Position numbers and translations under genes: made by a program
DNA from: Candidatus Lokiarchaeum ossiferum
GTDB lineage: Archaea; Asgardarchaeota; Lokiarchaeia; Sigyniarchaeales; Promethearchaeaceae
DNA: 32,000 nucleotides
NCBI GenBank assembly: GCA_025839675.1
Contig: CP104013.1
Span: forward strand, 5,790,001 to 5,822,000
Reading direction: 5' to 3'
Shown here: in pieces, positions 3-30,922 of the stretch
Numbering within the stretch: position 1 is the first letter of the stretch
How the letters are laid out: the number at the start of each line of letters is the position of its first letter
The notes under the pieces: generated by a model
The model's input: only the letters and a program-made list of their open reading frames with translations
What the model was told of the DNA's origin: nothing
The model's database searches: none

Positions 3-3000
3 TCTCAATCTCCCGAAGATAAGTATTATGTGGAACTGGATTCAGCTATGCTGTTTGGTGAATATGAACAGCAAATGGAGACCTTTACCTTCACCTTTAC
101 TGTAAATGGCTATAGCCAAGCCTGGACCTATCGGTTGTATGTGGATAATGACAATCCCGAGATCACTTTTGGATTCGATCCTTCCGTTTCCGTGAGTAGC
201 GATTCGATTGAGACTTCTTTGGATGAAATACCCGTAGTCTCGCTTAGTCAACCCATAAATTTAATTCAAGATCAAACCCAGATCTCATTGGATATTTCCC
301 ACAATAATACCGCGGATTTAGCTTATCTCGAATATTATGGGCTTTTTTACCATCGGGAAAGTGATGCGGATGGATGGTTGGATTATAACGCCATTTCGTA
401 TGACCGTGGGGTTGATGGCTTTAATTGGATCCAAGATATTTCAAATGGTTTGCTCTTTGCCATTGATAAAATGATTGCCAATGGTATAACTTGGAGCACC
501 TTACCTTCGTTATCTGGAAGTGATTATCACTACCTTCAATATGTGACCGAGTGGAATGTGAATGGCCTTTCAAACACATATTTCAATGAAGAAATGACCT
601 CCGCTCAAACAGACTTTGCCTCAAACTTGAGCCTGTTACTTTCCTATTTAACTACCGATCAACTGAGTAGTGCCTATGATCTAATGTTAAGGACTATCAA
701 ACCGCATTTAACGGAGCTCGCAACCAATGAATACGATGTACCGTGGGAAACTCCCGAAAAAGTCGTGTTTGGAACCTATTTTTCGGATGATTTAGCAACA
801 TATACTCCAACAATTAATCTGGAAGGTTTTCCCGATGGGTATTTTCAGCTCGGAACAAGCATTACTGATCATGTCGGATTACGAGATGAAAGTGTATCGC
901 CTCTGTATTTCTTGGAAAACAATCTCCCCACGTTCCAAATTGTTTCTCCTGCGGATAACGAACAACTGGTAATTTTACCCGATCAATGTAATTATGTGAA
1001 TTTTTCGATGTATGTGCCTGACCGTGATATTCGCTCGATTGCCTTAACTAATATGGTCATGTTTGATGATCTGGTGACGGAAGATTTAACTTTTGATATG
1101 GGGCAAGATTTGCCCAATCATCGAGTCGACTTCGGATTCAATCTCTCCGAAGCCATATCCAATACAATTGTGAATACCTATGTACTCAACCCACAATGTG
1201 CATGGACCATCACTACTGAAGATTTTGCAGGACGGATCTATACGCAAACCCGCACGTTTACCTGTGTGCAAATTCCAGATCACATTGGTCCTCAATTTTT
1301 GAATTATACGGTTCCAGATGCGTCCGCCCTCTGGACCGAAGGATGTGATATTGTTTTAAATATTACTGATTTTGGCAATCCTGTATTTGATGTAAATATG
1401 ACTTATGTTGGGGATGATGTGGCTTCTGGAATCCGATACTTGGAAGTGTGGCTTTCAGAAATCCCTCAAAATCTAGATCCTAGGCAAATTTACTTCCCGA
1501 TTATGGACTTTGAAACCACGGGAGATAGTTCCATGCTGGATAATTTTCTTGGTTTTATCATTACCTCCGAATCTGATGGTACATATATCTTCAATCCCGC
1601 GAAAATGAACAAGTTTTGGGCGAAATATGACGGGGATGGGCAATATACTTTTATTGTACGGGCTTTTGATCAGAATTTTAATGCAGAACTTATCACCGTT
1701 GATTTAAATATTGTGCAACCTCGCTTAAACCTCCCAGCTAATACTCCGGTGCCAACCATCGGAAGTGATGAATGGTTAAACCTTACTTTATCCAATCTTG
1801 GAGATCAAGTGGTGAGTGTTGAAATGCTGCTTTATACAGACATTACGGCCAGTTTCTTAGCTCCATGGTCATTAAGCGACTATGAGGAAGCAACCGAGAA
1901 TTTAATTGATCATCCGACGGATCCCGATGCCCTTCCAGCCTGGAATTCTTTGCGAATCCATACAACCATTCCCTATCTTGATCTGCCTGATTTGAACAAG
2001 AATCTGCCTGCTGCGAAAGGATACAAAATGGATTCCACATGCAATCCCTCGACGTGGAGCAGCAATGTTTATAGCTATACCCGAGTACTAGCATATGAAC
2101 CCCTAACAATGGGGGAGATTCTCACGTTTTCAGCATGGATCTATGTCTCTGAAGATTTTAATGGAGATTGGGCACGAATATCATGTGAAGGTGTTATTTC
2201 TGGGACGTCCTATTATAATTTAGCGAAAAAAGGGACGTGGCAGAAGGTCGAATTAACAGTTACGGCCAGTTCTACAGGAGAGGGTCATGGTTTCTTCTAT
2301 TTCTCAAAAAATGGAATTACTGATTTTTCCACTTTAACGGGGTATGTCATTTATCTGGCCCCCCAAGTGGAAAAGAAGGCATATGCGACACCTTTTGCTG
2401 ATGGCTCACGACTACCCATGCGATCCCAGATCTTATATAATTCTACCTCTCAGACAGAATATCAGTTCTCCTTCGCAGGAATTACCGAAGAAACCTATTA
2501 TGTGAATTATCAAATCATCCAAACCGATGGATCTGTTATTTCCCGTCTACATCAAGTTTCGTATCCCGATCACGTTGTGGAAGAATTACAAATTCCCAAT
2601 CATCTCCTAACCTCAGACAATACATGGTATGATCCTTATGGACTCGTGATTGATAATCACTTTCCACATGATGCCAACTGCAACTTTACGGAAGGGGATC
2701 TATGGTCAGAGATGGAAACAGTAATGATCACGTGGTTAGGGGAGACTCCTACCACGACTTCACCATGCGAAGTCTATCTACGATTTAATGGGATGGAATA
2801 TCCCCTAGTGAATAAAAGTTATACGGTGGACTGGATCACCCGTTCGGCGATTTTTACTCTAGATACGTATGAACTGCCCGAAGGGAGCCAAATTGTCGAA
2901 GCAACGGTTGTGTTTAGTAATGGGTATCAAACCAGCGTATCTCGGGTCATTATTGTTGACAATACTGCTCCCGTATTTATTCAAGATGGTATTTATATTA

Positions 3001-6000
3001 ATGGTACATCCCAATATGCCTTGAACGATTGGGTCCAGTACAAAACAATTATGTATTGCAATAATGTCGTCGAGCTGGAGATTCACGCCCAAGATAGTGA
3101 ATCGAATATCACAGCCATCGATCTTTGGGTAGAACACCAAGGTAATCTAGTTGGCTCGCTTCTTTCTTACCCCTTCAATTCTCCTTCTGTAATGGAAGCA
3201 CTACTCTATGATACGACAAGTTTAGGGGATGGGGAAGTGTATGATCTTTGCATAAAGATCAGCTCCGCAGGAGGGAGTATTACTTCCGATACAATCCAAT
3301 TATTTATCGATCGATCCGCCCCCGTGGGTGAATTTCTTACTCCTGCCACCACCACCACTTTTGGAGGTGACACAATTACCCTAGATGTCCTAGCGACCTC
3401 AAATAGTCCAATCCAACAAGTAGCCTTTTATTTCCAAACAGGGGTGGGGGGATTTTCTACTACTGACTTTTTAGGGTATGCCACCTTGCAATATGATTGG
3501 ACCACAGATCAATACCTCTATCGGTTGGACTTCGCGGATGTCGTTCAGTATCAGGGCCAAACCAATTACTTCTGGTTAGAAATCACCGATGAAGCGGGTA
3601 ATATGGCTCAAATCCCCACTTCGACACCGTGTACGATCTTACCGCAATATATCTCCTTAACGGAGGTTGAAGCGGTCTATTATATGGATCGGGATGAGAA
3701 TGCGGTGCTAACTGGAAGCCTTGAAAATTTTTATGAAGATTATGCCAATGCGATTATCAATGTTACGTTGAATATTCAAAATGGAGGCATGTTTGTGCCC
3801 ATCGGATCGGATGTGATTACGATTGATTCGACCACCGGAAACTCTGTCAATATAGAGTGGGGTGGGAATCTGCCCTTAGAATTTACCGACCTCGAAAATC
3901 TCCGTATTCCTATATCTTATGTGAGTCTCGATGGAAGTATCACATCTTGTGCCATCGATACCACTAATATTGCTGTCTGCGGAAAGTTCAACGCGACAGA
4001 TTCCCATCAAGTTGCTTTTATTACCTGTGGAACGGATCGCAGGATTCATCTTTTCTCCCATGATCCAACCACAGTGTTTGAGTGGAGTCGCTTTGATGAT
4101 ATCGATACGTATGCAGACCTCCCCGCAAAACACGTGGAAGTGGTGGATTTTGATGGAGATGGATATGATGAATTACTCTTACTCACGGCCGATCGGTTGA
4201 TTGTGGCTTCCTTTAATCGCACAACCCAAGATTGGGAATATCGAGAATTTGAATTTTCCCAATGGGCCGCAGATTTCTCGCAACCGGTGGAAGGCGTTTC
4301 CATGGGAACGAATAGTACTCACCTCTTTTTGGGATCTAGTTCTCCTCTCTTTACCGATCGAATCCTCGTAATGGAATCCCTTCCAACGGGCGATTTTTCG
4401 CTGGAGCAAGTGATCTATGCTCCGGAAGGAGAATCGATCACGGCATTTTCTAGCCTTCCCCTTGGGGATTCGGAGGATCTAACGATAGTAACTCTCCACG
4501 GTATCTATTCCCATAAGGAGGATCACTGGACCGAAATCTTCACCAGTGAATATACCTTAGTGCCAAAACTAGAGGTGGGCAATTTAGATCTAGACTCTTC
4601 CAATGAACTCCTCTTTGGAGTCTATGGGTATCAAGGCATTGATGTCATTCAAGGCAACTGGAATCTGAATACACAGTCCTGGGAGTTCATCGCAGCTCAA
4701 GCGTATTCGGACATAGCTCAAATTTATGACCTCGCCATTGGTCATGTGAATATGGATAACCGAGGACGGGCCATTATCGCCACCGATGCAGGGGTGGACA
4801 TGATCGATGTGTTAGACGATCCAACAGTGACAGCGGTAGAAGATATTTCTACCAGTCAAGATATGGAAGGCTATTATACGCAAAATGGTCTCTATGAATA
4901 TACTGATCTCGGTGCTCTGGATGACACAACCATTACAGAAATACGTGGAGAATTATCCTATACCTCGATGGGAGGTACTCTGGAAAATATATATTCCCCC
5001 GATCGGGTGAAGCTGGATGATGGATTGCATTTAGAAAGTGGTTCGATTGCAGATATAAGGGCCATTGATAATGAAGTGCTCGAAATCAGGTCCGATCACC
5101 ATGATGAAACTTCCCAACTTGGGATCGAGTTCTATTTCGATGAATTGGATTTAAGTCAAGAAACCACCTATACGCTTCAATGGCAATTTGAGGATGGTGG
5201 TTCACTGGGCTGGTTGAAAATTAAAGAAATTAAAATTTATGACCTTTATGATGTGGAACGTGTTTCTATCACCGGCACATCAGGTTTTTGGGGTGATGAA
5301 GTAGCAGAGACGGGTCTCTATGATATTGCGAGTTCAATCGGCAAAATCGAAGTCCTCATTGACAATGGTAACTTTGCCATGCCGTACATTTTTGAAATTG
5401 ATCTCATCTCACTCACCCTTCCCGACTTGAAAATGAGTGGTCCCCAAGGATACACCTCGGAGCAATTATCAACTGACACATGGGAACTTGGATCAGAACT
5501 AACTCATTGGAAACTTGATGGAAATGCTGTGGATGCTTTGGGATCTTATTCTGGAACCGTTTTAGGGGCATCTCCAACGGTCGATAGATTTAATTGTCCC
5601 AATAGTGCCCTAAATTTTGATGGTGTGAATGATTATATTACTGTTCAAAATGTGGCGGGTACATGTATAAGCGATCCTTCGATTACGGGAGAAATAAGTT
5701 TATCGATGTGGGCTTATATTGAGGGAGGTCTCTATATGGTTTCAAGCGGGGGTCAAACGAGTAGTCGTGGGATTGCCATTTCTTACCAAAATGGCAACGA
5801 ATTCATCCTTCTTCATGATGGAAATCAACAATGGATAGTATATCCTGATTGGCCCTTGAATCAATGGATTCATATCGGATTCACATGGAATGGATTTACT
5901 TTGGATTACTATCAAAATGGAGTGTTAACGTTATCGGACACTACTCCAACGAGCGCTTCTTTTTCGGACCTTCACACTGAATTGACCTTAGGAGTACCCA

Positions 6001-15000: not shown

Positions 15001-18000
15001 TCAAGCTCTATGATGAAGTCCGAGTAGACGAATTTGGGACAATGCATAATGAAACCACGTTACTCCAACAACGCAAGCTCACCACTTTAGTTTATCCCGC
15101 CGTCTGGAATCAATCAAGTACTCGAACGGTTGTGGGTCCTCCGAGTGTCACCGAAGGAGGACGATTTACCATTGGAACTCCTGAAGCCCAAGTCTTGAAT
15201 TTAGCGATGGATGTCACCGATCCCGAAATGGCCCATACTGCCATTCTTGAGTATAATTTAGCGGCCAGTGATCGGGATCTTGTGATCACCCGCTGGTCAG
15301 AACGATTCTATGATCGAGGATATTCGGCGAGTGATCCCGCTTCGATCGATACAGTGCAAAAAGTATGGCCTGTGGAAAGCATATCCTATTATGATCAATC
15401 CACCATCTTAACCCATGATTGGATCACGAAAAAAGTAAGTGAGAATTATAATCCCGATATCCTTCGGGATGTCTCCAATTCGGAATTGCAATCGATTAAG
15501 ATTGACGCCAATGATGGACTGAATCCTGTGTGGAATCAAGAAGTCGAGATTCATTTTGATAGCCATTATGTCATAGCCAATCAAGTCGATACGGTGGCTT
15601 TAACCTATCGGTTCGGTCTTAAAAATTACTTTGCTTTAGGGGCCCTTGGATTTCCCGCGCGCGTGGATCTCCAAATCCAAAAAGCGGATGCATCATGGAG
15701 TACGATCGCTTCCATCGAGGATTTAAATGTCCCCTTTGAACAGGATATTGCTTGGGTGGACGGAGTGTTTACCATTTCTGAAACCGAACTGGCCACATTT
15801 ACGGAAATTGGAGGATCAATGCTTTTGGATCTCAACGATCTACGGTTTGTGTTTGACGGGTGTGGGGTACGGGGAGCAGAATTATTTATTGATCAGTTGG
15901 TCCTTACCTTGGATAATGATAAAACGCGCCTCTTTTGGGACGATGAACATATTCATGCGTACAGTGATCTGGCGGCCTTGACCCATAGTTCAGATCCGGT
16001 CGTGATCACTCAAAGTGATAATCCACAAGCCGGGCAATCGGCCAATGTGTATACGATAGTGGATAATCGCACCCAAATTCCCGAAGTAGTAGGCTATGGT
16101 GATACGGAACTATTGTTGATGAATGTGGGTAACTGGAAAAACACCTCTTGGTGGGGAGACTCTCATTATGCAGGAGCTGATGCATGGAATTCGTGGGAAT
16201 ATCTTGTGAATGAAATGGATATTTATTCGGTGGAGGGTTCCCTTGCCGAAACCGACCAACTCCACTTGGATATTACGCCCTTTTACACGGATCCGGTTAC
16301 CCGCACCCCCGAGTTTGCGTGGATGGAACTTCCTCTCTATGTATTTACCACCCAAGGGATTGACGAAATGACATTAACGTATTCATTCTCCAATGCGGCT
16401 GACGAAAGCATAACCTACAATATGACGGAATTAGTGGGTGAGAGTGGATTGTTCATGGAAACTCTCCGTCTTCAACTGCAAGGACGTTGTTTAACGGAAG
16501 TCACATGGGATTTCACTTTCCATTCTTGGGTGAGCGCAGCCGACATCTCCACAGTCGGGTTAGGGGGGATTGCCTTTTATACCGAAGCGTCTTTGGGCAA
16601 GTTAGTGTTAACAACGGATACTTTGACGCATACGCACGATTTACTCCCCACAGTCTTTACAGGGCCCACCTCCCCCTATGGGGAATATGTGAATTTGTCC
16701 TCCCTGGGTGTCTTTACCTCCTTGGATCGCATCCAGATCCAAAGTGCCCAAGGCGTCAGCGATGTCTTACACAATGGATATTATGGAAGTCCTCTCTATC
16801 TCAGTTCCTTTACGGTGGTTAGTTATAATACCACATCACTGGCCGATGTCGCCTATCATTATGCCTATAATTTTGATCCGGTGCAAAGGAATTTTGAATA
16901 TCGCATGGTCGATTGGATGGAAGCGACTCCCACTCCTGAGTCATGGGAAGGAAGCAGTATGACCACCGAAGAAATTCCGTGGTTACGTCATCAAAGCTGG
17001 GATCTCGATGGGGATGCTTCTTATGATCTCTATGTGGAAGAATTTGACGGCGAAGGGCTCGGGGAGTTCTCCAATAACAAGTTAGATAATTTTCGGGTGG
17101 ATTATACGGGCGATGGATACTATGATCTTCAAGTGACCATGGATACGACCTTGACCACTTCTCAAGTAACGACACCCACCCTTTATAATATGGAGACAAA
17201 TTTGATTGGTGAAGCCACCGGGCATTATTATGTCATGCAAAATGCCAAGGAATTCATCGAAATTTCTGAGGATACCGATGGCGATGGACGCTTTGATCTG
17301 AAATCCGAATTTTCCCTCACCGCTTCTACCATGGCCTTACCCGAATATCGAGAATATGTGATCCATAACCATCAACTCACTTCCTTTAGTGATGCCACGT
17401 GGCACAAACCGATTGCGGGGGTGGCCTATAGTGTCGATAGTGATGGGGATGGGGTGTTTGAAGAAAGTATATCCCGTACCGATCGCTGGGCGAACTCCGA
17501 ATCTATTTTGGACGAAGCCTATGAACATTGGATCTATGAATCCTATACCTATACCTATGAGGATTTTGTGGAACGGGATAACATGCTCAAGGAAAATCTT
17601 ACCTTTACCCTCTGTGGGCCCGATTATTTCAATCTCACCGAAGACGGGTTATTGCAATTTGATTCTGATGGCGAAGTGTTGTATGATCGTCCCAGTCTCA
17701 CGGCCGAAGTGATTCTGGAATATGATGTGCCTGTTCCTATTGATCCCCGGTATAATCGTACGGTGGATCGTTCTTCGTGGGAGATCGATCGGTACCCCGA
17801 ATTACTCTGCGATCCCCATGGGGTGCTTGCATGGTGGGATGGTGATCATGATGGCACTGCAGAAACCGCTTTTGTGTTTACGGAACAATCGTGGGCCGAG
17901 GATCAAATGGCAATTGCCATTTATTATAGTCGGGATGGATCGGAGCAGGTGCATATTAATAGTTTTGAGTATCAAGCCTCGGGTGATTCGCTCCTACCTT

Positions 18001-21000
18001 TGTACTGGCTGAGTGCGGCGTACGATTATGAAATTCTGACCAACATTGCGTGGGAAGATTCCAAGGATGCGTATTGGACACAAATGAAAGGCTTTATCGA
18101 TGGGCAAGGTAACAGCATGACGGCCTCTTACTATTTAGATCTGGTGCATTCAATGTCCTTGATGGGCACCTCCGCCCTTATGGGGGGTGGGTTCGGATTT
18201 ATTATGGCAGGGTATGCAGTCTACCAATATTGGACTCGTCCGTTGTTGGTCGACTTTCTTGCCGAACATCAATTATGGGGAATGCAAGAACAACCCCATG
18301 AATTTGGGCAAGAAGCGGATCGCTATGATTTCTGGGATGGGTTGGATGCGATGATCGAGGATTTCACCAATTTTGGGAATTTCCAAGATCCTCAATACTA
18401 TGTGCAATCCTTCCCAATAATTACATCCAATCCTTGGTGGGATGATACAGTGTGGCGAGAAGCGGCTGAACCGACCTTTGATACCAGTAATACAGTGGTG
18501 TCCTTCAAAGTGCCCGATATGCAAATCAGTGGGGATACGCACGAAGGCATCATTGCTTGGTGGCTCCATTGGTATGAAAACGACTGGGTGGAAAATGATC
18601 CTGTGATTCCCTATGCGAATGCGCCCCAATGGTTATGTGATTTTATCACCACCTACCTTCAATATGTGCAAACTTCTTCCGATATGGATCGACCTCCCTC
18701 GAGTTATGTGAAAACACTCTATCCTGATATCACTATTCCCCAAGCCGATTTCAATGGCGAATTGGGGCAGGGGCTCTATGCCAATGTGTGGCGAGATCTT
18801 GGGGAAGTTGAATATCAACTCCTAGAAGGCAATCAACGGGGAGTTATTGCCACCACCTTGACCACCCATCATCCCGTCTATACCGATGTGATTTTCTCCG
18901 TGGATGCTTCGGGGCGACCTCTCTTTACACCCGCTGCGACTGTGTCCCGCAATTTGAGTGATCCGATTGCTCGGACCCTCGATTATATGGAACTCGCCTA
19001 CTATGCCCAATATGCGGGTGCCTATGAAGACGCCCGTGCAAAGGATCCCACGATCATTGCGTCACAACTTGGATTACAGGTGGTGCAAGTCGTGGCCGGC
19101 GTTTTGGCTTCGAATTTGGCTGTGATGAGTTTAGATCCTGTTGGATTCTATACGAATTATGTGGTCCGGGAAGGGTTGCCTGGCATCTTGCTGGATTTAA
19201 GTCGGGAAGTGTTCGAAGAATTGGTCTTAGAAGAACTAGTCAGTTCTGCGGCCCGATCCGTGGGGATTTCTTTGGGATTGGCGAACTTGTTAGGGGAATC
19301 CTTCGGGAGTTTTGATGTCATTTCCAACATCTACAGTACAGTGGGATCTGTCGATTACAGTGATCTCTATACGGCCTTACAAACGACTACCCCGCATTCG
19401 ACCACCCAACACGCTTCTTTAAGCGAACATGTGGCAGTCTCGAGTTTTCAACACCTCTCACAGGTGAAACAAGTGGCCCAATTGAAGAGTCTCTTACAAG
19501 CTCGATCCAGTATCCATGCGCTGATCCAATTACGAACGAATGCGCGAATGATGGGAGCTTTACAGACCTTTATTAGTACCCACATGGGTTCCAATATTCA
19601 GTTGAAGCCATACCTTAGGAATCTCGAAACTATGCCAATTCTGAAGTTTACCAATCACCATTTGACCGAGGAAGCGTTCCGTTTGGAGGTTGAGGAGACT
19701 ATTTGGGAATATTCGATCGCTGGGAAGTCGGTGCAAGAATTTCTCTCGGATCCCGCTTTATTGGCCAAATGGGGGTTGACGGAATGTGGAAATGAGATGT
19801 TCTTCCAGACTGTTTTGAAAGATTTTGGATCTGTGCAATATAAAGCAGATGGTCTAGTGTATGAAGAAATCGATGGAGTATGGAGATCTCGAATGAAATA
19901 TCCTGATGAAACCTTGGGAAGTTTTCTCTCTCGAGTGGATGGTGTGGTGTTGATTGATCCTCCCCATCAGAGTAATTTAGATAAATTTATAGAAAAGGAA
20001 TCAAGTAAGGAGATTGGAGATTCTGCGGAGTTAGATCCCGAAATTGTTTTCAAGGCGTTAGTAGAATCTAAAGATCAAGAACTAACGAAATCCACTTTGG
20101 AAACAGCTACTTTCTTGATTAAGAAAAAGCAATCTTTGAAATTAGATACTGCTTTTAAAACACCTCAACAGCTAGCAAATTTGCGGACTTATAAACCAAA
20201 ATCAGATAAATCACTCTATCCTATGAAAGTCTTTAAAGAAACTCATGTTCCTACAGAAGGAGATTTTCTGCATCGGGGTGATTCTTCCTTAAAAGAAATG
20301 ATTCCAATTCAGATAGAATCGATTAATAGATTTAGGAAATACCTAAATTACATGAAAACTTCGATGTTCCGTACATTAGTTAAGCAGAAGCTAAATAACT
20401 ACGAGGCTCATTTGAATTCGCTATACTCAAAACTAGAAGTAATCGATTCAACTAATCCAACAATTGTCGATGACCATTTCCGAATATCCGAAGATCTTCT
20501 GAAGATCTTTAACACATATCTTGGATCCAACACCTATATGGTCCTTCCTGCATATGCACGTATGAAGATTTCTGGATCATTGAAAGATTTGTATAAATGT
20601 TATTGGCAAATCAATATTTTGAAGAAAGGAACTATGTTTTATGAAAATTGTCGAAAGCAAGGAAAAGGGTTTTCTTTGCTCATTGGACCAGTTTCGGGAT
20701 ATAATGAATATAACATTTGGGTAAACCCTACTTCAAACCCTTTAGAACGATATCTCTTCAAAATTACCCCAAGAGGGGGCCATCATGAAGCAGCAACGGT
20801 TCTTTCATTCATAAAAACGAAATCTTTGGGTATGCCGGAAATAATCTCTCGTTCTAGTTTTTCTCCTCAAGATTCAGTAATTGATTGTCAAACGGATGCA
20901 TTTTCAATGATCTTAGGAGACACTGAATTAAATCGTTTATTGAATCATTTGAATATTGAACTCATCAAATCTGATTCTTCAGGCTCTCTTAAACCTGATT

Positions 21001-21893
21001 TTTATGTACGTACTCAAGCGGGTGAAAATTTTATTGGAGATGCTTTAGATGCTAGTAATACCGAAGATTTGCTCAAATACTCGGTCTCCTTAGAAGGAAG
21101 TTTGTTAGGCGGAATGGCTGAATTTGGGATCTCAACTTCCACTGCGATGCAGATGGCCTTTTATCGAGATTTGAACATCATTGGAACCATCGTTCCTAAC
21201 ATTTTGCGTGAAAATTTGGAGATTTTAAATTATATCCATAAGTATGAGACTGGTAATCCGTCGCAATCCTATGAGCAAACTATTAAGGATTTGTTTAAAA
21301 ATGCCGAGTCTTGGATTCCCACTATCCTGCCCGAGTATGATTCGGAAGGGCGGTTTGAGGGATTGGATATAATGTCATCTGAGATGAAGCGTTTGAAAGC
21401 AATCGAAATACAGCAAGAATGGGGGGTGACTCTTGAAGGAATCGAAGGAGTTATCAAACCCTTCGAATATGAGTCACCAGATCTTTATTATGGGAATTTG
21501 AGGACAACAATTTCTGTTGTGAAAGATATGCGGCTTTTCTGGTTCATGGTACGCAATCCGAGTGCATCATACCAAAATATCATAGATTATTATGTCACAA
21601 TCGCAACTGACTTATATGCTGATGCTGATATCGATTCTTTCCATGGAGATACTTTTAAAGATTATTTACAAACATTATCCGATGGTCGAATAAATAATTT
21701 TCCAGCACAATTGGCTCAATTTCCTCAAATGGGAATTGTTCATTTATGTCTGGACCATTGGCTTAGTCAAGGCGGATTTAATCTCAAATTGAAAAATGAA
21801 AATGTTGATAAGATCAACGATATAATCAGGAAATTGAATGAAATTTTGATTGCAAATGGATACAATCTGCTTCCTTTCAAAGCTAAAAAGTAA
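3..21893 (+). CDS. Giant (>7,296 aa; 5' end cut by window edge) acidic multidomain cell-surface/adhesin-like protein with C-terminal membrane segment(s) and a long tail
   Basis: There is no stop codon for 21.86 kb. The frame is also open from nt 3: SQSPEDKYY precedes the GTG at nt 30 used by the ORF track, so the true start lies upstream of the window. All alternative-frame ORFs inside it are <=128 aa. The protein is D/E/T/S/Y-rich and K/R-poor with many N-x-S/T sequons. Extracellular domain types are listed as sub-features. Confidence 0.9.
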   Translation, partial: SQSPEDKYYVELDSAMLFGEYEQQMETFTFTFTVNGYSQAWTYRLYVDNDNPEITFGFDPSVSVSSDSIETSLDEIPVVSLSQPINLIQDQTQISLDISHNNTADLAYLEYYGLFYHRESDADGWLDYNAISYDRGVDGFNWIQDISNGLLFAIDKMIANGITWSTLPSLSGSDYHYLQYVTEWNVNGLSNTYFNEEMTSAQTDFASNLSLLLSYLTTDQLSSAYDLMLRTIKPHLTELATNEYDVPWETPEKVVFGTYFSDDLATYTPTINLEGFPDGYFQLGTSITDHVGLRDESVSPLYFLENNLPTFQIVSPADNEQLVILPDQCNYVNFSMYVPDRDIRSIALTNMVMFDDLVTEDLTFDMGQDLPNHRVDFGFNLSEAISNTIVNTYVLNPQCAWTITTEDFAGRIYTQTRTFTCVQIPDHIGPQFLNYTVPDASALWTEGCDIVLNITDFGNPVFDVNMTYVGDDVASGIRYLEVWLSEIPQNLDPRQIYFPIMDFETTGDSSMLDNFLGFIITSESDGTYIFNPAKMNKFWAKYDGDGQYTFIVRAFDQNFNAELITVDLNIVQPRLNLPANTPVPTIGSDEWLNLTLSNLGDQVVSVEMLLYTDITASFLAPWSLSDYEEATENLIDHPTDPDALPAWNSLRIHTTIPYLDLPDLNKNLPAAKGYKMDSTCNPSTWSSNVYSYTRVLAYEPLTMGEILTFSAWIYVSEDFNGDWARISCEGVISGTSYYNLAKKGTWQKVELTVTASSTGEGHGFFYFSKNGITDFSTLTGYVIYLAPQVEKKAYATPFADGSRLPMRSQILYNSTSQTEYQFSFAGITEETYYVNYQIIQTDGSVISRLHQVSYPDHVVEELQIPNHLLTSDNTWYDPYGLVIDNHFPHDANCNFTEGDLWSEMETVMITWLGETPTTTSPCEVYLRFNGMEYPLVNKSYTVDWITRSAIFTLDTYELPEGSQIVEATVVFSNGYQTSVSRVIIVDNTAPVFIQDGIYINGTSQYALNDWVQYKTIMYCNNVVELEIHAQDSESNITAIDLWVEHQGNLVGSLLSYPFNSPSVMEALLYDTTSLGDGEVYDLCIKISSAGGSITSDTIQLFIDRSAPVGEFLTPATTTTFGGDTITLDVLATSNSPIQQVAFYFQTGVGGFSTTDFLGYATLQYDWTTDQYLYRLDFADVVQYQGQTNYFWLEITDEAGNMAQIPTSTPCTILPQYISLTEVEAVYYMDRDENAVLTGSLENFYEDYANAIINVTLNIQNGGMFVPIGSDVITIDSTTGNSVNIEWGGNLPLEFTDLENLRIPISYVSLDGSITSCAIDTTNIAVCGKFNATDSHQVAFITCGTDRRIHLFSHDPTTVFEWSRFDDIDTYADLPAKHVEVVDFDGDGYDELLLLTADRLIVASFNRTTQDWEYREFEFSQWAADFSQPVEGVSMGTNSTHLFLGSSSPLFTDRILVMESLPTGDFSLEQVIYAPEGESITAFSSLPLGDSEDLTIVTLHGIYSHKEDHWTEIFTSEYTLVPKLEVGNLDLDSSNELLFGVYGYQGIDVIQGNWNLNTQSWEFIAAQAYSDIAQIYDLAIGHVNMDNRGRAIIATDAGVDMIDVLDDPTVTAVEDISTSQDMEGYYTQNGLYEYTDLGALDDTTITEIRGELSYTSMGGTLENIYSPDRVKLDDGLHLESGSIADIRAIDNEVLEIRSDHHDETSQLGIEFYFDELDLSQETTYTLQWQFEDGGSLGWLKIKEIKIYDLYDVERVSITGTSGFWGDEVAETGLYDIASSIGKIEVLIDNGNFAMPYIFEIDLISLTLPDLKMSGPQGYTSEQLSTDTWELGSELTHWKLDGNAVDALGSYSGTVLGASPTVDRFNCPNSALNFDGVNDYITVQNVAGTCISDPSITGEISLSMWAYIEGGLYMVSSGGQTSSRGIAISYQNGNEFILLHDGNQQWIVYPDWPLNQWIHIGFTWNGFTLDYYQNGVLTLSDTTPTSASFSDLHTELTLGVPNSVKTAYHFDGKLDDLRFYDTVLSRSEMQQLSQGPFVIEGVNSENPNPLISLATLTTSGDVTQIARILQPNTAGYSPAGDLQALTVNQVTSDTLGYDANGYITQSFFADTPVTTTSLLSRLGDYPNNALVQTGNSMYAIAGSTFDFYSALPATLHISRHGTPGYGYGSIMNYYIYYYSDNNLLRSVNVDCYSEGYGSGVAIFAFNVDLKEGYVNGEGCNKIGVGVKFLYTDYGTLSVKCIPNLENEADPSNYPIEWNNCYNKVPFEADITINRGELGDIEDVLNYRLTIPIEIDMYGRTFAGTITDLNYNPAVLSAQNILIHTSIDGGNTWNAYSGANIVQQSTLAYNIELSLTPSSLSIFFSPEGSVLMRVSFLLEFTHPSQFVYDGYALIPTLRIDASQIEAELLSRISSSLECDQTGFEILEIPIDRSPILENEFDIFHPPSNFDATYSTRVLLDLTCPDLIYTAYSAPLEGDIQVRSLESDSNTVRLDHFEGSTSATHTSGILYTTSGEEIVGSKSIILPSAGSYAKYDYNVEFTYEGTAECYFRPSTVPMDNTLYAIMTSDSSGYPGLMVYMYNGKIQAGHYTDVGNVGKFCGWTYSDPVLNENEIYHIAYSWKDGDGAYLYINGNLVGSNPDDGDPANFFLDCWGTSTHVGIGQCGYRSSVGAALGTYDEYRFSNLARTDFPTTIYTEKTYDALEALYNDDQVEKLPIRISVEDISSSAPTEASEITLALQYDEGDVIMNNNAYIDLDSETHPFPNGVIPEDIALTITTKSSNFASYLSSERTYRISYSFWSETEGVWHLLCALPASTLDFSLKAGSVPTTETTITYGETGHDQYYEQTFGVALPIAQCENAKYLQLEIDGEVDHFLWDTGNWYEYNAFDTADHGLTYNQWISDNNGKTHLQIHHPTNGWTNLESWNWTTYLDGRFALTYALIDGWGTFDQSLNDEYYQFAFRFIIDQGAYPQANHHMEVNIRKISGMIVHTRDPNDVESREKAYEMYDGRHLFSITLGDTTFDPSALDAVSISVDMGVIINITTVPGGVKLPILDEKLVWRQLAAEFFLESQITTAQGEHLLKNLFGSPTITAQVIDDDLIYTVSQTLTLYSRNQIAEFLHFEEGVGYSLRGRLVSHFSLLNNRLGSIRVSVQATDDFISAAKVVYERISEQVSPNQVHDLTLGDLDDDGDQDLLFDDGSAIIVQPNEATFALKLSAFNNDSLDPYLDQYFLGSMDLGAPHPNFYGQTQELPEFGTSMTLHVVDYSYDLTSIALYCDDVLVETQSVTQGSNYFSFTVDTLSPLIGEGNHVMKVIATDSQSQTGEANLMVIIDRSAPSTTLQMLGDWQDLEVSLRTNLTLDVVESNTLISTEMLFTSVTDVPICAFTFAQEDLKSISLLEDVILPSGFDHGAFKIRFWSVDQAGNSEIPTEYAFTISSTYDLTFYTDETYLEEETTLSRHEGEVLFGQVLDRFGEPLPEGFPLDLKFEGLNYIQTSIQGNFGHFSGQIQSSNLLTDDLRTDFALANNGGLEEELVTSDTVEFTLAGENRYFAVDGLRRFYYGSANPLTLIYDQVDLSDYSSLYSFEGIHVEVIIPSAYHDDMGTTYETIEIEFRELAHFENDTDIVTTYTVPFETLLAAVKTSNPTPWQDMMVSRIGIDIGFYNLVARNSLFNLSAIDQIRIIGHDNGIHPDFSLEDPSNSDQLLGCAGIYLLDHLNQATMFYETNPSGVESVTYALTAQCNMGVVGNTITTYAYPLTIQPKPFMLTVTSTVNTTMTFGDLYTLEGIEWDTGFNPTTTEIIDDFCLLQAIYEGDSYPTPIGTPMDLGIASEMTFLINALPGEYTDLHLNYSGNALYPSTLSGELLSDLTVTKKPTHIELANSVLSMERNSSSSLFGLVLTTDRYPLLPDTDVSVTQTLLREFAEGTRGDYYWGNYTFENVLLGLLNESGEYDWMEMAFLQEGEVFVFDVDLAEDGNLEGMTPGLYSMAVKFEGNALYDATVQPFLLQVNPSALDIEIREGFAQNWTAMANGYASYLQYSDEKVFSMKVSDAFDADPCAGYPLWYQVGFTPNSPNFPLMCVSDNYADTWGDYMEFQTSETPDILKFWQYIQAKDDRPIAYPYYDEAMDQIMFMAPFAYGMVTTDAEGLAEVVLDPQMTTEIAELYKAIFKVTLGSLDEINLYFRVFYDASFSPDQMKMPDLVSLGYTYPIEYFGKEALVYEGDDILPTASISNGFWTGTNYQDPYHCGSWGEGILTMLAEDTMIVAGYQEFNEPNFNLAAAVVEADLIAEGTYLPEVHGESNFIESTGLPTDNWMELGLEIWNQANSSQVLAYPWAEMVDDLGISTFTCNENTLGSAIDRLLPGFYTANYAYERGSSIYYNAPHAGSTSLLLKGVNSARLDSPTHHQTLSELIGPETVSTTSLTTAEGETILGEFDTNYPTLTGELSLDALNEIPDNYNYTDLITVDFLWNGWRVGGEYSYNLSEYTEAIPFEVPFKFQDGYPVNFSVEVAFDYNPEANLNWSAEMTAAGYEIWSEYYLSMAYNATLENCWANYAPISDYAIILTELSVKQSTLYDSGNEWDLMAELLTKYPQVSYDGYNLNQNPGAGWKYLNGSIQDDIPQVSLKIGEDNVEEYVSATIDQSAITISLDKDQISGWTPDHSEEYNVTLSFPELFSVERYQWNMSYDVDDPQFEKHSRFTQLTGMVLGENVNKSLRTAIYTNSTYDGTEATQDATYIGLQVGETMSLVVPDVYMPWRGELQWQALCPQLPWLDYTSLEWELVLTVHQSADPTNIHTLSWILNTSDFSKVDGGFWQDLSTFIPSAFYSCDVNLELNITLHSSGDVTAIYPLYLIHGYLVGQEDIVTISTVYPSALRARMFGSSFLYLYTLFGKDMGITATSNDDQGNTLENINDMYLEVLPYTGDAYGVQSITDILSVKDERRFLEYPSVSEANMDYWFTTASGTPNYATYQEFVAEDSLGQTMFAMRYNESQLDAIEDPRIYSGFVKLYDEVRVDEFGTMHNETTLLQQRKLTTLVYPAVWNQSSTRTVVGPPSVTEGGRFTIGTPEAQVLNLAMDVTDPEMAHTAILEYNLAASDRDLVITRWSERFYDRGYSASDPASIDTVQKVWPVESISYYDQSTILTHDWITKKVSENYNPDILRDVSNSELQSIKIDANDGLNPVWNQEVEIHFDSHYVIANQVDTVALTYRFGLKNYFALGALGFPARVDLQIQKADASWSTIASIEDLNVPFEQDIAWVDGVFTISETELATFTEIGGSMLLDLNDLRFVFDGCGVRGAELFIDQLVLTLDNDKTRLFWDDEHIHAYSDLAALTHSSDPVVITQSDNPQAGQSANVYTIVDNRTQIPEVVGYGDTELLLMNVGNWKNTSWWGDSHYAGADAWNSWEYLVNEMDIYSVEGSLAETDQLHLDITPFYTDPVTRTPEFAWMELPLYVFTTQGIDEMTLTYSFSNAADESITYNMTELVGESGLFMETLRLQLQGRCLTEVTWDFTFHSWVSAADISTVGLGGIAFYTEASLGKLVLTTDTLTHTHDLLPTVFTGPTSPYGEYVNLSSLGVFTSLDRIQIQSAQGVSDVLHNGYYGSPLYLSSFTVVSYNTTSLADVAYHYAYNFDPVQRNFEYRMVDWMEATPTPESWEGSSMTTEEIPWLRHQSWDLDGDASYDLYVEEFDGEGLGEFSNNKLDNFRVDYTGDGYYDLQVTMDTTLTTSQVTTPTLYNMETNLIGEATGHYYVMQNAKEFIEISEDTDGDGRFDLKSEFSLTASTMALPEYREYVIHNHQLTSFSDATWHKPIAGVAYSVDSDGDGVFEESISRTDRWANSESILDEAYEHWIYESYTYTYEDFVERDNMLKENLTFTLCGPDYFNLTEDGLLQFDSDGEVLYDRPSLTAEVILEYDVPVPIDPRYNRTVDRSSWEIDRYPELLCDPHGVLAWWDGDHDGTAETAFVFTEQSWAEDQMAIAIYYSRDGSEQVHINSFEYQASGDSLLPLYWLSAAYDYEILTNIAWEDSKDAYWTQMKGFIDGQGNSMTASYYLDLVHSMSLMGTSALMGGGFGFIMAGYAVYQYWTRPLLVDFLAEHQLWGMQEQPHEFGQEADRYDFWDGLDAMIEDFTNFGNFQDPQYYVQSFPIITSNPWWDDTVWREAAEPTFDTSNTVVSFKVPDMQISGDTHEGIIAWWLHWYENDWVENDPVIPYANAPQWLCDFITTYLQYVQTSSDMDRPPSSYVKTLYPDITIPQADFNGELGQGLYANVWRDLGEVEYQLLEGNQRGVIATTLTTHHPVYTDVIFSVDASGRPLFTPAATVSRNLSDPIARTLDYMELAYYAQYAGAYEDARAKDPTIIASQLGLQVVQVVAGVLASNLAVMSLDPVGFYTNYVVREGLPGILLDLSREVFEELVLEELVSSAARSVGISLGLANLLGESFGSFDVISNIYSTVGSVDYSDLYTALQTTTPHSTTQHASLSEHVAVSSFQHLSQVKQVAQLKSLLQARSSIHALIQLRTNARMMGALQTFISTHMGSNIQLKPYLRNLETMPILKFTNHHLTEEAFRLEVEETIWEYSIAGKSVQEFLSDPALLAKWGLTECGNEMFFQTVLKDFGSVQYKADGLVYEEIDGVWRSRMKYPDETLGSFLSRVDGVVLIDPPHQSNLDKFIEKESSKEIGDSAELDPEIVFKALVESKDQELTKSTLETATFLIKKKQSLKLDTAFKTPQQLANLRTYKPKSDKSLYPMKVFKETHVPTEGDFLHRGDSSLKEMIPIQIESINRFRKYLNYMKTSMFRTLVKQKLNNYEAHLNSLYSKLEVIDSTNPTIVDDHFRISEDLLKIFNTYLGSNTYMVLPAYARMKISGSLKDLYKCYWQINILKKGTMFYENCRKQGKGFSLLIGPVSGYNEYNIWVNPTSNPLERYLFKITPRGGHHEAATVLSFIKTKSLGMPEIISRSSFSPQDSVIDCQTDAFSMILGDTELNRLLNHLNIELIKSDSSGSLKPDFYVRTQAGENFIGDALDASNTEDLLKYSVSLEGSLLGGMAEFGISTSTAMQMAFYRDLNIIGTIVPNILRENLEILNYIHKYETGNPSQSYEQTIKDLFKNAESWIPTILPEYDSEGRFEGLDIMSSEMKRLKAIEIQQEWGVTLEGIEGVIKPFEYESPDLYYGNLRTTISVVKDMRLFWFMVRNPSASYQNIIDYYVTIATDLYADADIDSFHGDTFKDYLQTLSDGRINNFPAQLAQFPQMGIVHLCLDHWLSQGGFNLKLKNENVDKINDIIRKLNEILIANGYNLLPFKAKK
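2016..2411 (+). other. Domain in giant ORF: jelly-roll, galactose-binding-like/CBM_4_9-like module
   Basis: Segment KGYKMDSTCNPSTWSS...LTFSAWIYVSEDFNGDWARISCEG...GTWQKVELTVTASSTGEGHGFFYF...GYVIYLAPQVEKKAYATPFADGSR. The beta-strand pattern and the terminal 'Q-V-E-x-x-x-Y-A-T-P-F' resemble CBM/tail-fibre-type jelly rolls. Assignment is by eye only. Confidence 0.35.
2760..3640 (+). other. Domains in giant ORF: three tandem Ig-like modules
   Basis: Roughly 90-120-aa beta-rich units are delimited by VDNTAPV (2958-2972) and IDRSAPV (3309-3323). The third unit carries ITDEAGN (DEAGN at 3588-3602). D-x-[ST]-A-P boundaries and D-x-A-G-N are typical of prokaryotic Ig-like surface modules. Confidence 0.5.
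3940..4820 (+). other. Domain in giant ORF: FG-GAP/VCBS-type (integrin-alpha-like) beta-propeller
   Basis: Blade-like repeats of roughly 60 aa are present. They include HVEVVDFDGDGYDELLLL (DFDGDGYDE at 4146-4172), VGNLDLDSSNELLFG (4574-4618) and IGHVNMDNRGRAIIATD (4738-4790). This is the D-x-D/N-x-D-G-x-x-[DE]-hydrophobic signature of FG-GAP repeats. Confidence 0.55.
5502..6096 (+). other. Domain in giant ORF: LamG / Laminin_G_3 (concanavalin A-like lectin) domain 1
   Basis: THWKLDGNAVDALGSYSGTVLGASPT...NSALNFDGVNDYITV...ISLSMWAY...NQWIHIGFTWNGFTLDYYQNGVL...LTLGV...HFDGKLDDLRFYDTVLSRSEMQQL. The motifs occur in the canonical Laminin_G_3 order: W-x-[FL]-D-G entry, F-D-G-x-x-D-Y-[IV], W-x-H-[IV]-x-x-[TV], Y-x-[ND]-G, and G-x-[IL]-D-[DE]-[LV]-R-[IF]-Y-x-x-x-L-S-x-x-E. 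Confidence 0.8.
7464..8060 (+). other. Domain in giant ORF: LamG-like domain 2 (more divergent)
   Basis: VRLDHFEGSTSATHTSG...GTAECYFRPS...NEIYHIAYSWKDGDGAYLYINGNLVGS...HVGIG...ALGTYDEYRFSNLARTDF follows the same strand and motif order as domain 1, ending in the D-E-Y-R-F-S box. Confidence 0.6.
9531..10300 (+). other. Domains in giant ORF: isolated FG-GAP-type motif followed by two Ig-like modules
   Basis: LTLGDLDDDGDQDLLFDDGSAIIV lies at 9531-9602. It is followed by LHVVDYSYDLTSIALYCDDVLV...HVMKVIATDSQSQTGEANLMVIIDRSAPS (DRSAP at 9984-9998) and ...FKIRFWSVDQAGNSE (DQAGN at 10248-10262). Confidence 0.45.
11529..12038 (+). other. Domains in giant ORF: Ig-like repeat ends (Big_3_5-like 'Y-x-G-N-x-L-Y' strands)
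   Basis: LNYSGNALYPSTLSGELLSDLTVTKKPTHIEL lies at 11529-11624 and MAVKFEGNALYDATVQPFLLQVNPSALDIEI at 11946-12038. Both match the [YF]-x-G-[DN]-x-x-[YF]-x-x-[ST]...V-x-x-x-x-[ST/A]-x-[IL] terminal pattern of 'Ig-like domain repeat' proteins. Confidence 0.4.
17001..17879 (+). other. Domain in giant ORF: membrane-proximal cluster of five DxDGDG-type (FG-GAP / calcium-binding) repeats
   Basis: The five repeats are WDLDGDASYDLYV (from 17001), VDYTGDGYYDLQV (~17098), EDTDGDGRFDLKS (~17271), VDSDGDGVFEES (~17433) and WWDGDHDGTAETAFVF (17832-17879). They are spaced roughly 30-130 aa apart. Confidence 0.6.
18150..18233 (+). other. Predicted transmembrane segment 1 of giant ORF
   Basis: SMSLMGTSALMGGGFGFIMAGYAVYQYW contains a ~22-aa uncharged Gly/Ala/Met/Phe-rich core followed by W-T-R. 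It is the first clearly hydrophobic stretch after ~6,040 visible residues. Confidence 0.6.
19050..19133 (+). other. Possible second hydrophobic/membrane-associated segment of giant ORF
   Basis: TIIASQLGLQVVQVVAGVLASNLAVMSL, preceded by ARAKD. It is only moderately hydrophobic because it contains Q, N and S, so it may be a TM helix, a re-entrant segment or a buried helix. Confidence 0.35.
19950..21890 (+). other. Compositionally distinct C-terminal module of giant ORF (AT-rich, Lys-rich, no recognisable domain)
   Basis: My hand GC counts of single 60-nt lines are: 19021-19080 52%, 19741-19800 48%, 19861-19920 38%, 19981-20040 37%, 20101-20160 25%, 20581-20640 23%, 21361-21420 35%. The protein switches from D/T/G/P-rich to K/I/N/L-rich sequence (e.g. 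LIKKKQSLKLDTAFKTPQQLANLRTYKPKSDKSLYPMKVFKE). Confidence 0.6.
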
Positions 21894-26354: not shown

Positions 26355-26557
26355 ACATGATTTTGCATACAATATTGAAGAAAAAAATTCTCATTTCACC
26401 TTCATCACCAATTACTATTGCCAAATGGGGTTTAAAATATCAACAAAGTCTATAGTTTTGAAGGTGAAGTCGATTTCAAGGTTGCTCCATATTATTATAT
26501 TTTTTTGAAGTTGGAAAAGGTAGCTACTTCCTATCTTTTTATCTAGTTCATTTTTTT

Positions 26558-27673: not shown

Positions 27674-27886
27674 TCGTGCAATGGCAATTTCTTATCTATT
27701 TCTTCAATTTTTTTGATCATTTTTTATAAAAAAGGAAAGTAGGATTATCAACTTCCCTATCTGAAATGTTTTTGCAATACTTGGTGGCTTTCATGAGCTA
27801 TCGATTTTAAAATCATCTAAAAATCAAAAATGTAAGTGCTTCTTTATTCAAAAAACGACGTGTTGGGATAGGATAAGTTACCTATG

Positions 27887-27895
27887 TTTAAAAAA
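27887..27895 (+). promoter_or_regulatory. Putative TATA-like box for the UPF0284 gene
   Basis: TTTAAAAAA is centred about 26 nt upstream of the ATG at 27917, a spacing consistent with a leaderless archaeal transcript. Confidence 0.3.
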
Positions 27896-27916
27896 TGATG
27901 ATGCTTTTGACAAATT

Positions 27917-29005: not shown

Positions 29006-29046
29006 AATCCCTTCAGATTTCAGGTAAATTAATGAACCCTTTTTTT
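29003..29046 (+). terminator. Hairpin plus T7 tract between convergent genes
   Basis: TGAAATC (29003-29009) pairs with GATTTCA (29016-29022) across a 6-nt loop. A T7 tract at 29040-29046 lies just before the stop codon (29051-29053) of the convergent gene. Confidence 0.4.
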
Positions 29047-29050
29047 AACG

Positions 29051-30454: not shown

Positions 30455-30922
30455 CTTTTATCAATTTATTCTAATCATTTCTAGTAATTAAACAAAAATG
30501 TTTGAGAAAGAGAGAGAAAAAAAGGAGAAAAAAGGAAATTAATGATTATTCCCTGTCCATATGAGATAGATAACTGCTCATCCATTTGGAATTCGTCTTA
30601 AACGGAGAAATTATTACAATTTGGTTTAAATCAAATATGAAATGGTAGAAATATGGGTGTTTTTTCCTTTAGAAATATCTAAGTTTTGTTCTTTTTTTTT
30701 TCCCAATTCTTTAACCTTCTTTTCCTTCTATTGTCTATTTCTTCACTGATTGAGTCTTAGGGAATAGATATTTATCACGGAAAGCTATACGATTTTTAAT
30801 TAACCTCTCATTATGTCTGATCAAATGGGAGAAGAAAAGAAAAAAGTTAATTATAGGTTGAAAAACTGTGCCTATCGCATGGATACAGTGAGAACTGCCT
30901 CACAAACCTCCGTTAGAATTCA

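Follow-up and report, generated by a model that had tools for sequence, protein, structure and literature searches.

A giant Lokiarchaeum gene as a candidate member of an Asgard polymorphic-toxin-like system

What does an archaeal cell do with a protein of almost ten thousand residues? The question is raised by a stretch of 32,000 nucleotides (nt) from the genome of Candidatus Lokiarchaeum ossiferum (contig CP104013.1, positions 5,790,001 to 5,822,000), which is referred to here as the window. Its plus strand is occupied from nt 3 to 21893 by the C-terminal 7,296 codons and the stop codon of one giant gene, presumably NEF87_004916 of L. ossiferum B-35, the tag being deduced from that of the neighbouring gene. 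On a 70,865-bp contig of the same organism (the 70.9-kb assembly) the complete gene is called with 9,702 amino acid residues, of which the C-terminal 75% fall in the window. An earlier note on this DNA had described a surface protein of more than 7,296 residues; the protein is larger indeed, with the full size given by the assembly call. Residues are numbered below from the left edge of the window, and all parts of the giant gene lie on the plus strand. The answer that we favour, and that we consider rather probable on the sequence evidence, is that the gene encodes the stalk and the warhead of a new Asgard polymorphic-toxin-like system.

The conserved module, the junction and the variable tails

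The part of the protein that defines its family is a conserved membrane-proximal module at residues 5681-6654 (nt 17043-19964). An exhaustive HMMER search with this module as the query found only 32 related proteins among 1.84 billion representative proteins. Those with source names come from genomes of L. ossiferum or of 'Promethearchaeota archaeon', that is, from Asgard archaea. The relatives include the giants NEF87_004486 (7,593 residues, same genome) and P0043 (7,451 residues) and further proteins of 2,300-4,200 residues, which are probably cut by contig ends. NEF87_004486 is a paralog encoded in the same genome, and L. ossiferum therefore has at least two such giants. A word-index search with residues 6000-7296 returned one homolog, P0001, a protein of 1,558 residues from an ENA metagenome, which is 62% identical to the window protein in the module. 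A metagenome scan for relatives gave no match. The species-representative genomes gave none either when searched with the module of the paralog or with the first 500 window-encoded residues; L. ossiferum apparently lies outside that set.

Two complete giant relatives start with a signal peptide that is followed by LASGC or FGSAC, each with a lipobox-like Cys, and these features support the prediction that the N-terminus in this family would be extracellular and lipid-tethered. The paralog NEF87_004486 (entries P0014/P0044) aligns collinearly to the window protein, with an identity of about 27%; it carries the LASGC lipobox and ends in a deaminase-like tail (D-x-E ... PCxxC).

The module consists of several distinct segments. 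It begins with a beta-rich domain containing DxDGDG-type motifs (residues 5695-5999, nt 17085-17999), for which the AlphaFold2 model has values of the predicted local distance difference test (pLDDT) mostly in the range 65-89. The first hydrophobic segment, zone 1 (SLMGTSALMGGGFGFIMAGYAVYQYW, residues 6052-6077, nt 18156-18233), is Gly-rich and weaker, and is modelled as helix-break-helix. In most relatives this zone spans 33-50 residues with a central Pro or Gly, and for this reason it is probably a membrane hairpin. A Trp-rich acidic loop of 273 residues follows (residues 6078-6350, nt 18234-19052), resembling the ectodomain in its composition and in its density of N-x-S/T sequons. The strongest transmembrane helix is located at residues 6351-6375 (nt 19053-19127; hydropathy 1.83; model helix 669-697) and is the sole strong hydrophobic helix of the visible protein. 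The remaining pre-junction region (residues 6376-6654, nt 19128-19964) is free of sequons and mostly helical with a small beta unit at its end, and its last 70 or so residues are nearly identical to those of P0001. The AlphaFold2 model of residues 5681-6654 was built with a 20-sequence alignment and has a mean pLDDT of 61.5. It contains a confident beta-rich domain (model residues 15-320), low-confidence helices after helix 669-697, and the beta unit before the junction. A Foldseek search with this model against the PDB gave nothing at E<=0.001.

The module ends at an Asp-Pro junction, Asp6652-Pro6653 (nt 19956-19961). The motif at this point, [LFMI][VI]-D-P, often with a second Pro after it, is invariant and opens the variable domain in all 22 of the 22 family sequences that reach it. 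Compared with P0001 in bins of 100 residues, the window protein shows 37-76% identity up to the junction and 0-25% beyond it, with a drop to noise directly after ...SRVDGVVLIDPP. The boundary is equally sharp in the DNA, where identity to the P0001 locus is 82% as far as nt 19963 and absent from there on. The base composition changes at the same place: over 600 nt on either side of the junction, the GC content of third codon positions (GC3) is 0.465 before it and 0.305 after it. For the complete segments, GC3 is 0.47 in the gene body, 0.316 in the tail and 0.348 in the gene of the leucine-rich-repeat (LRR) protein that follows, the last two being closer to each other than to the body.

Beyond the junction lies the variable C-terminal tail, which in the window protein comprises 642 residues (6655-7296, nt 19965-21890). 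It is the presumed effector and has no family or structure match. The tails of relatives range in size from 185 to 946 residues, and the 18 usable tails fall into about ten groups that are unrelated by BLAST. Domains of known toxins were found in several of them. The tail of P0035 matches the Toxin-deaminase family PF14424 (E 4.5e-13, 50 bits against a cut-off of 29.6), and the tails of P0021 and P0024 match Colicin_D (E 1.7e-3 and 0.058, respectively), sub-threshold and with almost the whole model covered.

The gene next to the tail is of special interest. It starts 95 nt past the giant gene and encodes the LRR protein NEF87_004917 (609 residues, nt 21989-23818, plus strand), which has no signal peptide, is the only member of its 90%-identity cluster and gave no match in PADLOC. 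From its position it is a candidate cognate partner or immunity protein of the tail. The same arrangement recurs in the family. An LRR-type gene stands beside the tail in 11 of the 13 loci with a visible neighbour (the window, L005, five in L006, L009, L013, L014 and L016); the neighbours in the other two are one SUKH gene and one unrelated gene. The LRR partners are 21-55% identical among themselves, and none has a signal peptide. In L008 a SUKH-family gene comes directly after the deaminase cassette and is followed by an open reading frame (ORF) that opens with a pre-junction fragment. The survey of Zhang et al. 2012 (PMC3482391) counts Imm-LRR as well as SUKH among the immunity classes.

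Orphan cassettes, in which the conserved stub and a tail occur apart from a giant gene, were found in arrays (L006, L008) and as single genes (L005, L009). The array in L006 consists of at least four ORFs, each with a pre-junction fragment and a differing tail, which alternate with five LRR-type genes. The single orphans (L005, 10001-14677, 1,558 residues; L009, 10001-12856, 951 residues) start inside the conserved module without a signal peptide and have an LRR gene next to them. They may be expressed, or they may be merely a stock for recombination. In bacteria, toxin-immunity cassettes are described as travelling in pairs and recombining onto a constant 5' gene body (PMC3482391). Apart from the delivery module, the architecture of the present family agrees with that account in every point.

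Of five sequence hallmarks of polymorphic toxins, four were observed in this family. The toxin domain was seen in relatives only, and a recognised trafficking or secretion module (type V, VI or VII secretion systems, T5SS, T6SS and T7SS, Sec-only etc.) was found neither among the 7,296 residues nor among the neighbouring genes.

Sequon depletion and a proposed mechanism

The number of N-x-S/T sequons in each segment was compared with the number expected from the composition of that same segment. The family ectodomains upstream of the module contain 221 sequons, with 188 expected. Within the module, the part before zone 1 has 32 (22 expected) and the loop has 20 (14 expected). From the transmembrane helix to the junction, only 1 sequon is present against 24.4 expected (P 6e-10), and all 18 tails together contain 3 against 91.9 expected (P ~2e-35). 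The window protein behaves in the same way: there are 54 sequons in residues 1-6350 (54.2 expected) and 0 in residues 6376-7296 (6.8 expected), of which the 642-residue tail alone would account for 5.3. The switch in sequon density coincides exactly with the transmembrane helix. Control motifs in the tails occur at observed-to-expected ratios of 0.78-1.14. The LRR partners have 46 sequons against 42.5 expected, and the cytoplasmic neighbours in the window have 17 against 14.

A permanently cytoplasmic domain has no cause to lose sequons, and because of this we infer that the C-terminal region would be exported. It would meet the archaeal oligosaccharyltransferase of the outer face at some stage, and would have to stay free of glycans. 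A loss of sequons would be expected for cargo that must cross into another cell. The exposure of the C-terminus may be constitutive (N-out/C-out, with the loop inside), or it may be triggered, with the tail first kept inside.

The following mechanism can be proposed. The giant ectodomain would reach and bind neighbouring cells, and the region after the transmembrane helix would be the exported cargo, in which residues 6376-6654 perhaps serve for entry or translocation. The tail could be released at the Asp-Pro bond and act inside the target cell. Some RTX proteins self-cleave at Asp-Pro, and Rhs toxins are reportedly cut at a DPxGL motif. In sister cells, the cytoplasmic LRR protein would neutralise the matching tail. 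Recombination at the conserved pre-junction sequence would exchange the tail together with its partner as cassettes, and strains would in this way compete with one another or discriminate kin. The cargo could possibly enter by way of membrane fusion, vesicles or cell bridges, given the vesicles and protrusions of this organism (PMC9834061). A more specific form of the proposal is put forward only tentatively, and we regard it as doubtful. It would be a contact weapon of the Asgard archaea's own, independent of bacterial secretion, and composed of a repeat-free stalk of about 1 MDa anchored by lipid and helix, a glycan-free cargo kept at the membrane, a cut at Asp-Pro and immunity by LRR proteins. 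The cargo would be pushed or fused into the adjacent cell, perhaps by means of vesicles, protrusions or cell bridges, and strains would shuffle cassettes of cargo and immunity gene.

Arguments against the proposal and alternative readings

Several observations weigh against the proposal. The tail of the window protein matches no toxin domain of Pfam, NCBIfam or PADLOC, a word-index search gave no homolog of it, and its single-sequence AlphaFold2 model has a pLDDT of 36 and is unusable. The Toxin-deaminase match (PF14424) in the tail of NEF87_004486, with E 5.9e-6, is just under the Pfam cut-off, and the deaminase-like tails have D-x-E in place of the usual H-x-E. The long tails of 590-950 residues are weakly and patchily alike, as for example those of the window protein and P0039 (E 8e-5, phmmer with an 18-sequence database). 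Because of this similarity, some of the apparent polymorphism may reflect fast divergence of one large module and not the replacement of cassettes. The composition of the tail looks cytoplasmic, with 11.4% K+R compared with 9.4% in the neighbouring LRR protein, and this cytoplasm-like composition extends over the last 900 residues or so. The positive-inside charge counts around the membrane segments are inconsistent across the family and of no use for topology. No export or delivery machinery was identified, either within the visible 7,296 residues or among the window neighbours; the domain searches cover these visible residues, and the N-terminal 2,406 residues lie outside the window. Moreover, no orphan cassette is present within 10 kb downstream of the giant gene, and LRR proteins are common in Asgard genomes.

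The first alternative is that the protein is a giant receptor for adhesion or matrix binding without any toxin function. Its ectodomain would bind partner cells or surfaces, and the tail would then be cytoplasmic and the LRR protein would be an adaptor to signalling or actin, as in an integrin-like system. The domain content of the ectodomain must be considered here. The ectodomain comprises about 8,450 residues of acidic sequence bearing Ig and LamG domains, about 6,050 of these within the window. The sequence up to about residue 6350 is strongly acidic (D+E 14.5%, K+R 4.1%), and curated models name very little of it. Above the cut-off there are only one bacterial Ig-like domain, Big_7 (residues 1107-1170, nt 3321-3512), and two Laminin_G_3 domains, at residues 1876-2026 (nt 5628-6080; whole-protein E 8e-23 for both copies) and at residues 2536-2684 (nt 7608-8054; E 2.4e-9). 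The two Laminin_G_3 domains are held by a region of about 1,000 residues (1667-2680, nt 5001-8042), which has no counterpart in the collinear giants. The other segments seen only in the window protein are residues 619-823 and the tail. An FG-GAP-like repeat at residues 1344-1392 (nt 4032-4178) is sub-threshold, with 20.6 bits against a cut-off of 26.9, and is the single match to FG-GAP_3/FG-GAP, compared with the seven-bladed propeller of an integrin-like receptor. Also sub-threshold are a match to GTA_spike_fiber of NCBIfam (residues 628-798, nt 1884-2396), inside the segment 619-823 that is missing from the other giants, and matches to Big_13 and OmpL47-type models. DxDGDG-type motifs occur at residues 1382, 3181, 5757, 5812 and 5946. 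A sequence search of PDB chains with the giant protein gave noise only.

The earlier note had named most of these modules from the sequence alone. Its two LamG domains, its Ig-like domain and its DxDGDG repeats are all borne out by the searches. The FG-GAP propeller, in comparison, comes down to the one weak match, and nothing corresponds to the jelly-roll except the sub-threshold GTA_spike_fiber segment. The description as a giant surface protein was right about the giant, repeat-free and mostly extracellular character, but it overlooked the C-terminal 1,250 residues, in which most of the functional information lies and with which the protein is not a plain adhesin.

The Ig-like, LamG and FG-GAP-like modules together with the membrane anchor are what an adhesion receptor would have. 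Its cytoplasmic domain would also explain a tail with the composition of cytoplasmic proteins and without a toxin signature, and LRR is a general protein-binding module. L. ossiferum is described as having complex surface proteins, making cell contacts and crawling in a manner that depends on adhesion (PMC9834061; bioRxiv 10.1101/2025.11.30.690169). However, relatives carry a toxin deaminase with SUKH, and Colicin-D-like domains, in the same position as this tail, and the tandem arrays of orphan tails and LRR genes have no obvious signalling role. A cytoplasmic domain should keep its sequons as the LRR partners do, yet the tails have 3 where 92 are expected. In addition, the block containing the gene is strain-specific, as described below. 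The adhesion receptor is for these reasons considered rather unlikely.

The second alternative retains the polymorphism and gives up the killing. According to it, the tail and the LRR protein would form a matching pair for non-lethal recognition of self and non-self during contact or cytoplasmic bridging. The polymorphism, the cassette arrays and the strain specificity apply to it as well, and most of the long tails have no enzymatic signature. Hypervariable modules have been proposed for self/non-self recognition in Thermococcales archaea (PMC8416519). Against this, the classifiable tails are classic toxins accompanied by classic immunity genes. In recognition systems it is also usually the exposed ectodomain that varies, and in this family the ectodomain is conserved. 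This alternative is judged to be unlikely, and the polymorphic-toxin-like system is preferred to it.

An artefact, be it a chimeric join in the assembly, several genes read through as one or a pseudogene in decay, might be suspected from the extreme length, from the near absence of database annotation and from a word-index search with the first 1,200 window-encoded residues that returned no match, not even the protein itself, but it is very improbable in view of the independent assemblies, the statistics of the reading frame and the collinear relatives.

The evidence on this last point is as follows. In frame 3 of the plus strand no stop occurs over nt 3-21890, that is, for 7,296 codons as the earlier note had stated, with the stop codon at 21891-21893 and the left edge of the window still open. 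At the composition of the window a stop is expected once per 15.8 codons, and log10 of the probability of such a stop-free run is -206.9, or about 1e-207. In the other frames within the giant ORF, the longest stop-free run is 154 codons (minus strand, 12588-13049), which probably arises as a side effect of the coding-strand composition. The other-frame ORFs are thus short, as the note had claimed, although not limited to its 128 residues. Likewise, the AT-rich background which it described is found in the flanks (27-37% GC) and in the window as a whole (40% GC), but the ORF body has 41-47% GC. Logan assemblies from four independent sequencing runs have 100% identity to the window over the shared parts (up to 20 kb), and the locus also occurs on a contig of more than 1 Mb; because of this agreement mis-assembly, which the note had wished to see excluded, is unlikely. 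The downstream neighbours match NEF87_004917, NEF87_004920 and other B-35 proteins exactly, and the B-35 genome, which has the locus, is closed (6,035,313 bp). At the protein level the reading frame is kept: 5,461 of the 7,296 residues align in order, at 24-29% identity, to other giants, including the paralog of 7,593 residues. The protein is also non-repetitive, as had been noted by eye. Tandem Repeats Finder gave only four trivial matches of 15-19 nt, a direct-repeat search gave only two chance pairs of 30-34 nt, and self-BLASTP of 300-residue segments gave no off-diagonal match at E<0.01, the best at relaxed settings having E=0.05.

Genomic setting and comparison with known systems

A second L. 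ossiferum genome is available for comparison (CP163304.1, 6,274,825 bp; L012). It has 95.3% nt identity to the window, in nt 26434-30546 only. To the left of 26434 this genome has cobalamin and ABC-transporter genes instead, and to the right of 30546 it differs as well. Because the syntenic site of CP163304.1 is without it, the block of the giant gene, the LRR gene and the SIR2-TPR gene is, as judged from the two genomes, strain-specific at this site. At the level of single proteins, the CobT-like and serine-hydrolase neighbours have counterparts of at least 90% identity in CP163304.1, and the LRR and SIR2-TPR proteins have none. A mobile element with a tRNA target was rejected as an explanation, since the window contains no tRNA gene.

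The strain-specific block ends with the gene of a SIR2_2 and TPR protein of 827 residues (nt 23871-26354, plus strand; GC 0.27, GC3 0.18), for which PADLOC gave weak matches to defence candidates that contain SIR2. Across the boundary, the nearest gene on the right (26558-27673, plus strand) is kept in the second strain. Its product is a multi-pass membrane protein of 371 residues having a C-terminal Cys-rich zinc-ribbon-like motif and a weak match to DUF7577. It is followed by a gene of a CobT-like/UPF0284 phosphoribosyltransferase (27917-29005, plus strand), which in the second strain adjoins a full cluster of cobalamin-salvage and ABC-transporter genes and which in B-35 is separated from the upstream sequence by the giant-gene block. 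A right-handed beta-helix surface protein of NosD type is encoded on the minus strand at 30923-31999 and runs off the right edge (892 residues in L001). It combines Big_13-like modules with a linker rich in Thr and Glu and a C-terminal hydrophobic anchor, after which basic residues follow, and it lies in a region not common to the second strain.

No paper on Asgard polymorphic toxins, on this giant gene, its junction, the LRR pairing or the sequon signal was found in the literature, one 2019 mBio survey of archaeal polymorphic toxins not being covered. In a preprint, most archaeal genes of more than 10,000 residues are assigned to Asgard archaea, and such genes are left unanalysed there. The present family would be an archaeal one of the polymorphic-toxin-like kind, with source-named members from Asgard archaea, a scaffold unlike the known ones, and paralogs of 7,593 and 9,702 residues in an organism that is cultured and has a closed genome. 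These proteins are candidates for those complex surface proteins of L. ossiferum that are unexplained (PMC9834061). They also bear on how these cells, whose partner contacts are central to models of eukaryote origin, tell competitors from kin. If the contact weapon that was put forward tentatively above is real, a device that delivers protein into another cell would be among the surface proteins seen by cryo-tomography, in the lineage giving rise to eukaryotes. The loss of sequons after a transmembrane helix is a signal obtained from sequence only, and it could help to find exported effectors of archaea elsewhere. With their LRR partners, the long tails that cannot be classified form a pool of effector and inhibitor domains to characterise. 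The organism is in culture and the predictions are directly testable.

It remains to compare the giant protein with the systems already described. Polymorphic toxins have been described as rarities among archaea, with an origin in bacteria (PMC3482391). The present family is like the bacterial polymorphic toxins (PMC3482391) in its constant long 5' body, in the motif that opens a variable C-terminus and in the immunity-type gene downstream. The orphan cassettes with a conserved stub, the Toxin-deaminase and Colicin-D-type domains and the SUKH or LRR partners are further points of likeness. In contrast to them, the stalk is without RHS, filamentous-haemagglutinin, PAAR, LXG or any other known trafficking domain, the protein has its own membrane segments as an anchor, no known secretion system lies nearby, and the members with source names are Asgard. 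Most of the tails are also very long (590-950 residues) and cannot be classified, unlike those of bacteria.

CdiA is a large surface filament with a C-terminal toxin that follows a VENN motif, an adjacent cytoplasmic immunity gene, and orphan arrays of C-terminal toxin and immunity modules. Its toxin half is held back until the target is contacted. A hold-back of this kind is one way in which the cytoplasm-like composition of the tail could be reconciled with its lack of sequons. L. ossiferum, unlike the hosts of CdiA, has a single membrane. The giant protein also differs from CdiA in that its body is non-repetitive and that no two-partner secretion (TPS) domain, filamentous haemagglutinin (FHA) repeats or VENN motif were found in the visible 7,296 residues and no CdiB neighbour beside the gene. 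With no Pfam or NCBIfam match to TPS or FHA in these visible residues, a two-partner exoprotein of the CdiA type was rejected.

In Rhs proteins the toxin is set off by an Asp-Pro motif (DPxGL) and is released by autoproteolysis, and the teneurins are membrane-anchored giant adhesion proteins descended from them. The giant protein shares with Rhs the D-P dipeptide of the junction, which differs in its surroundings, being [LFMI][VI]DP(P) in comparison with PxxxxDPxGL. Cleavage of the giant protein at the candidate Asp-Pro bond would be analogous to Rhs autoproteolysis. An Rhs/YD-repeat toxin was rejected, since no RHS/YD repeat match was found in the visible residues and the junctions have only D-P in common. 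Rhs toxins of Methanosarcina have been noted (PMC3482391).

Giant adhesins such as halomucin, SiiE, LapA/Bap and the Apilactobacillus Giant1-5 proteins (PMC12863079) resemble the window protein in their thousands of residues, surface location, Ig-like domains and acidic character. Typical members of this class are built from many near-identical tandem repeats, unlike the present protein, which is repeat-free and has a transmembrane anchor and a polymorphic tail. A repeat-built adhesin of the Bap/SiiE/LapA/halomucin type was rejected, no repeats being present in the DNA or in the protein.

The haloarchaeal contractile injection system or T6SS (PMC11566945) and the hypervariable Ig module of Thermococcales (PMC8416519) are archaeal, engaged in contact or surface functions and variable between strains. 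Their proteins and delivery logic are unrelated to those proposed here, and there is no contractile machinery in the window. The SitA toxins of myxobacteria, which depend on the outer membrane exchange of TraA/B (PMC5562445), are polymorphic and are passed between cells that touch and fuse their membranes. The likeness of the giant protein to SitA is an analogy only, without homology, and it would become relevant if delivery of the tail makes use of membrane fusion, vesicles or cell bridges.

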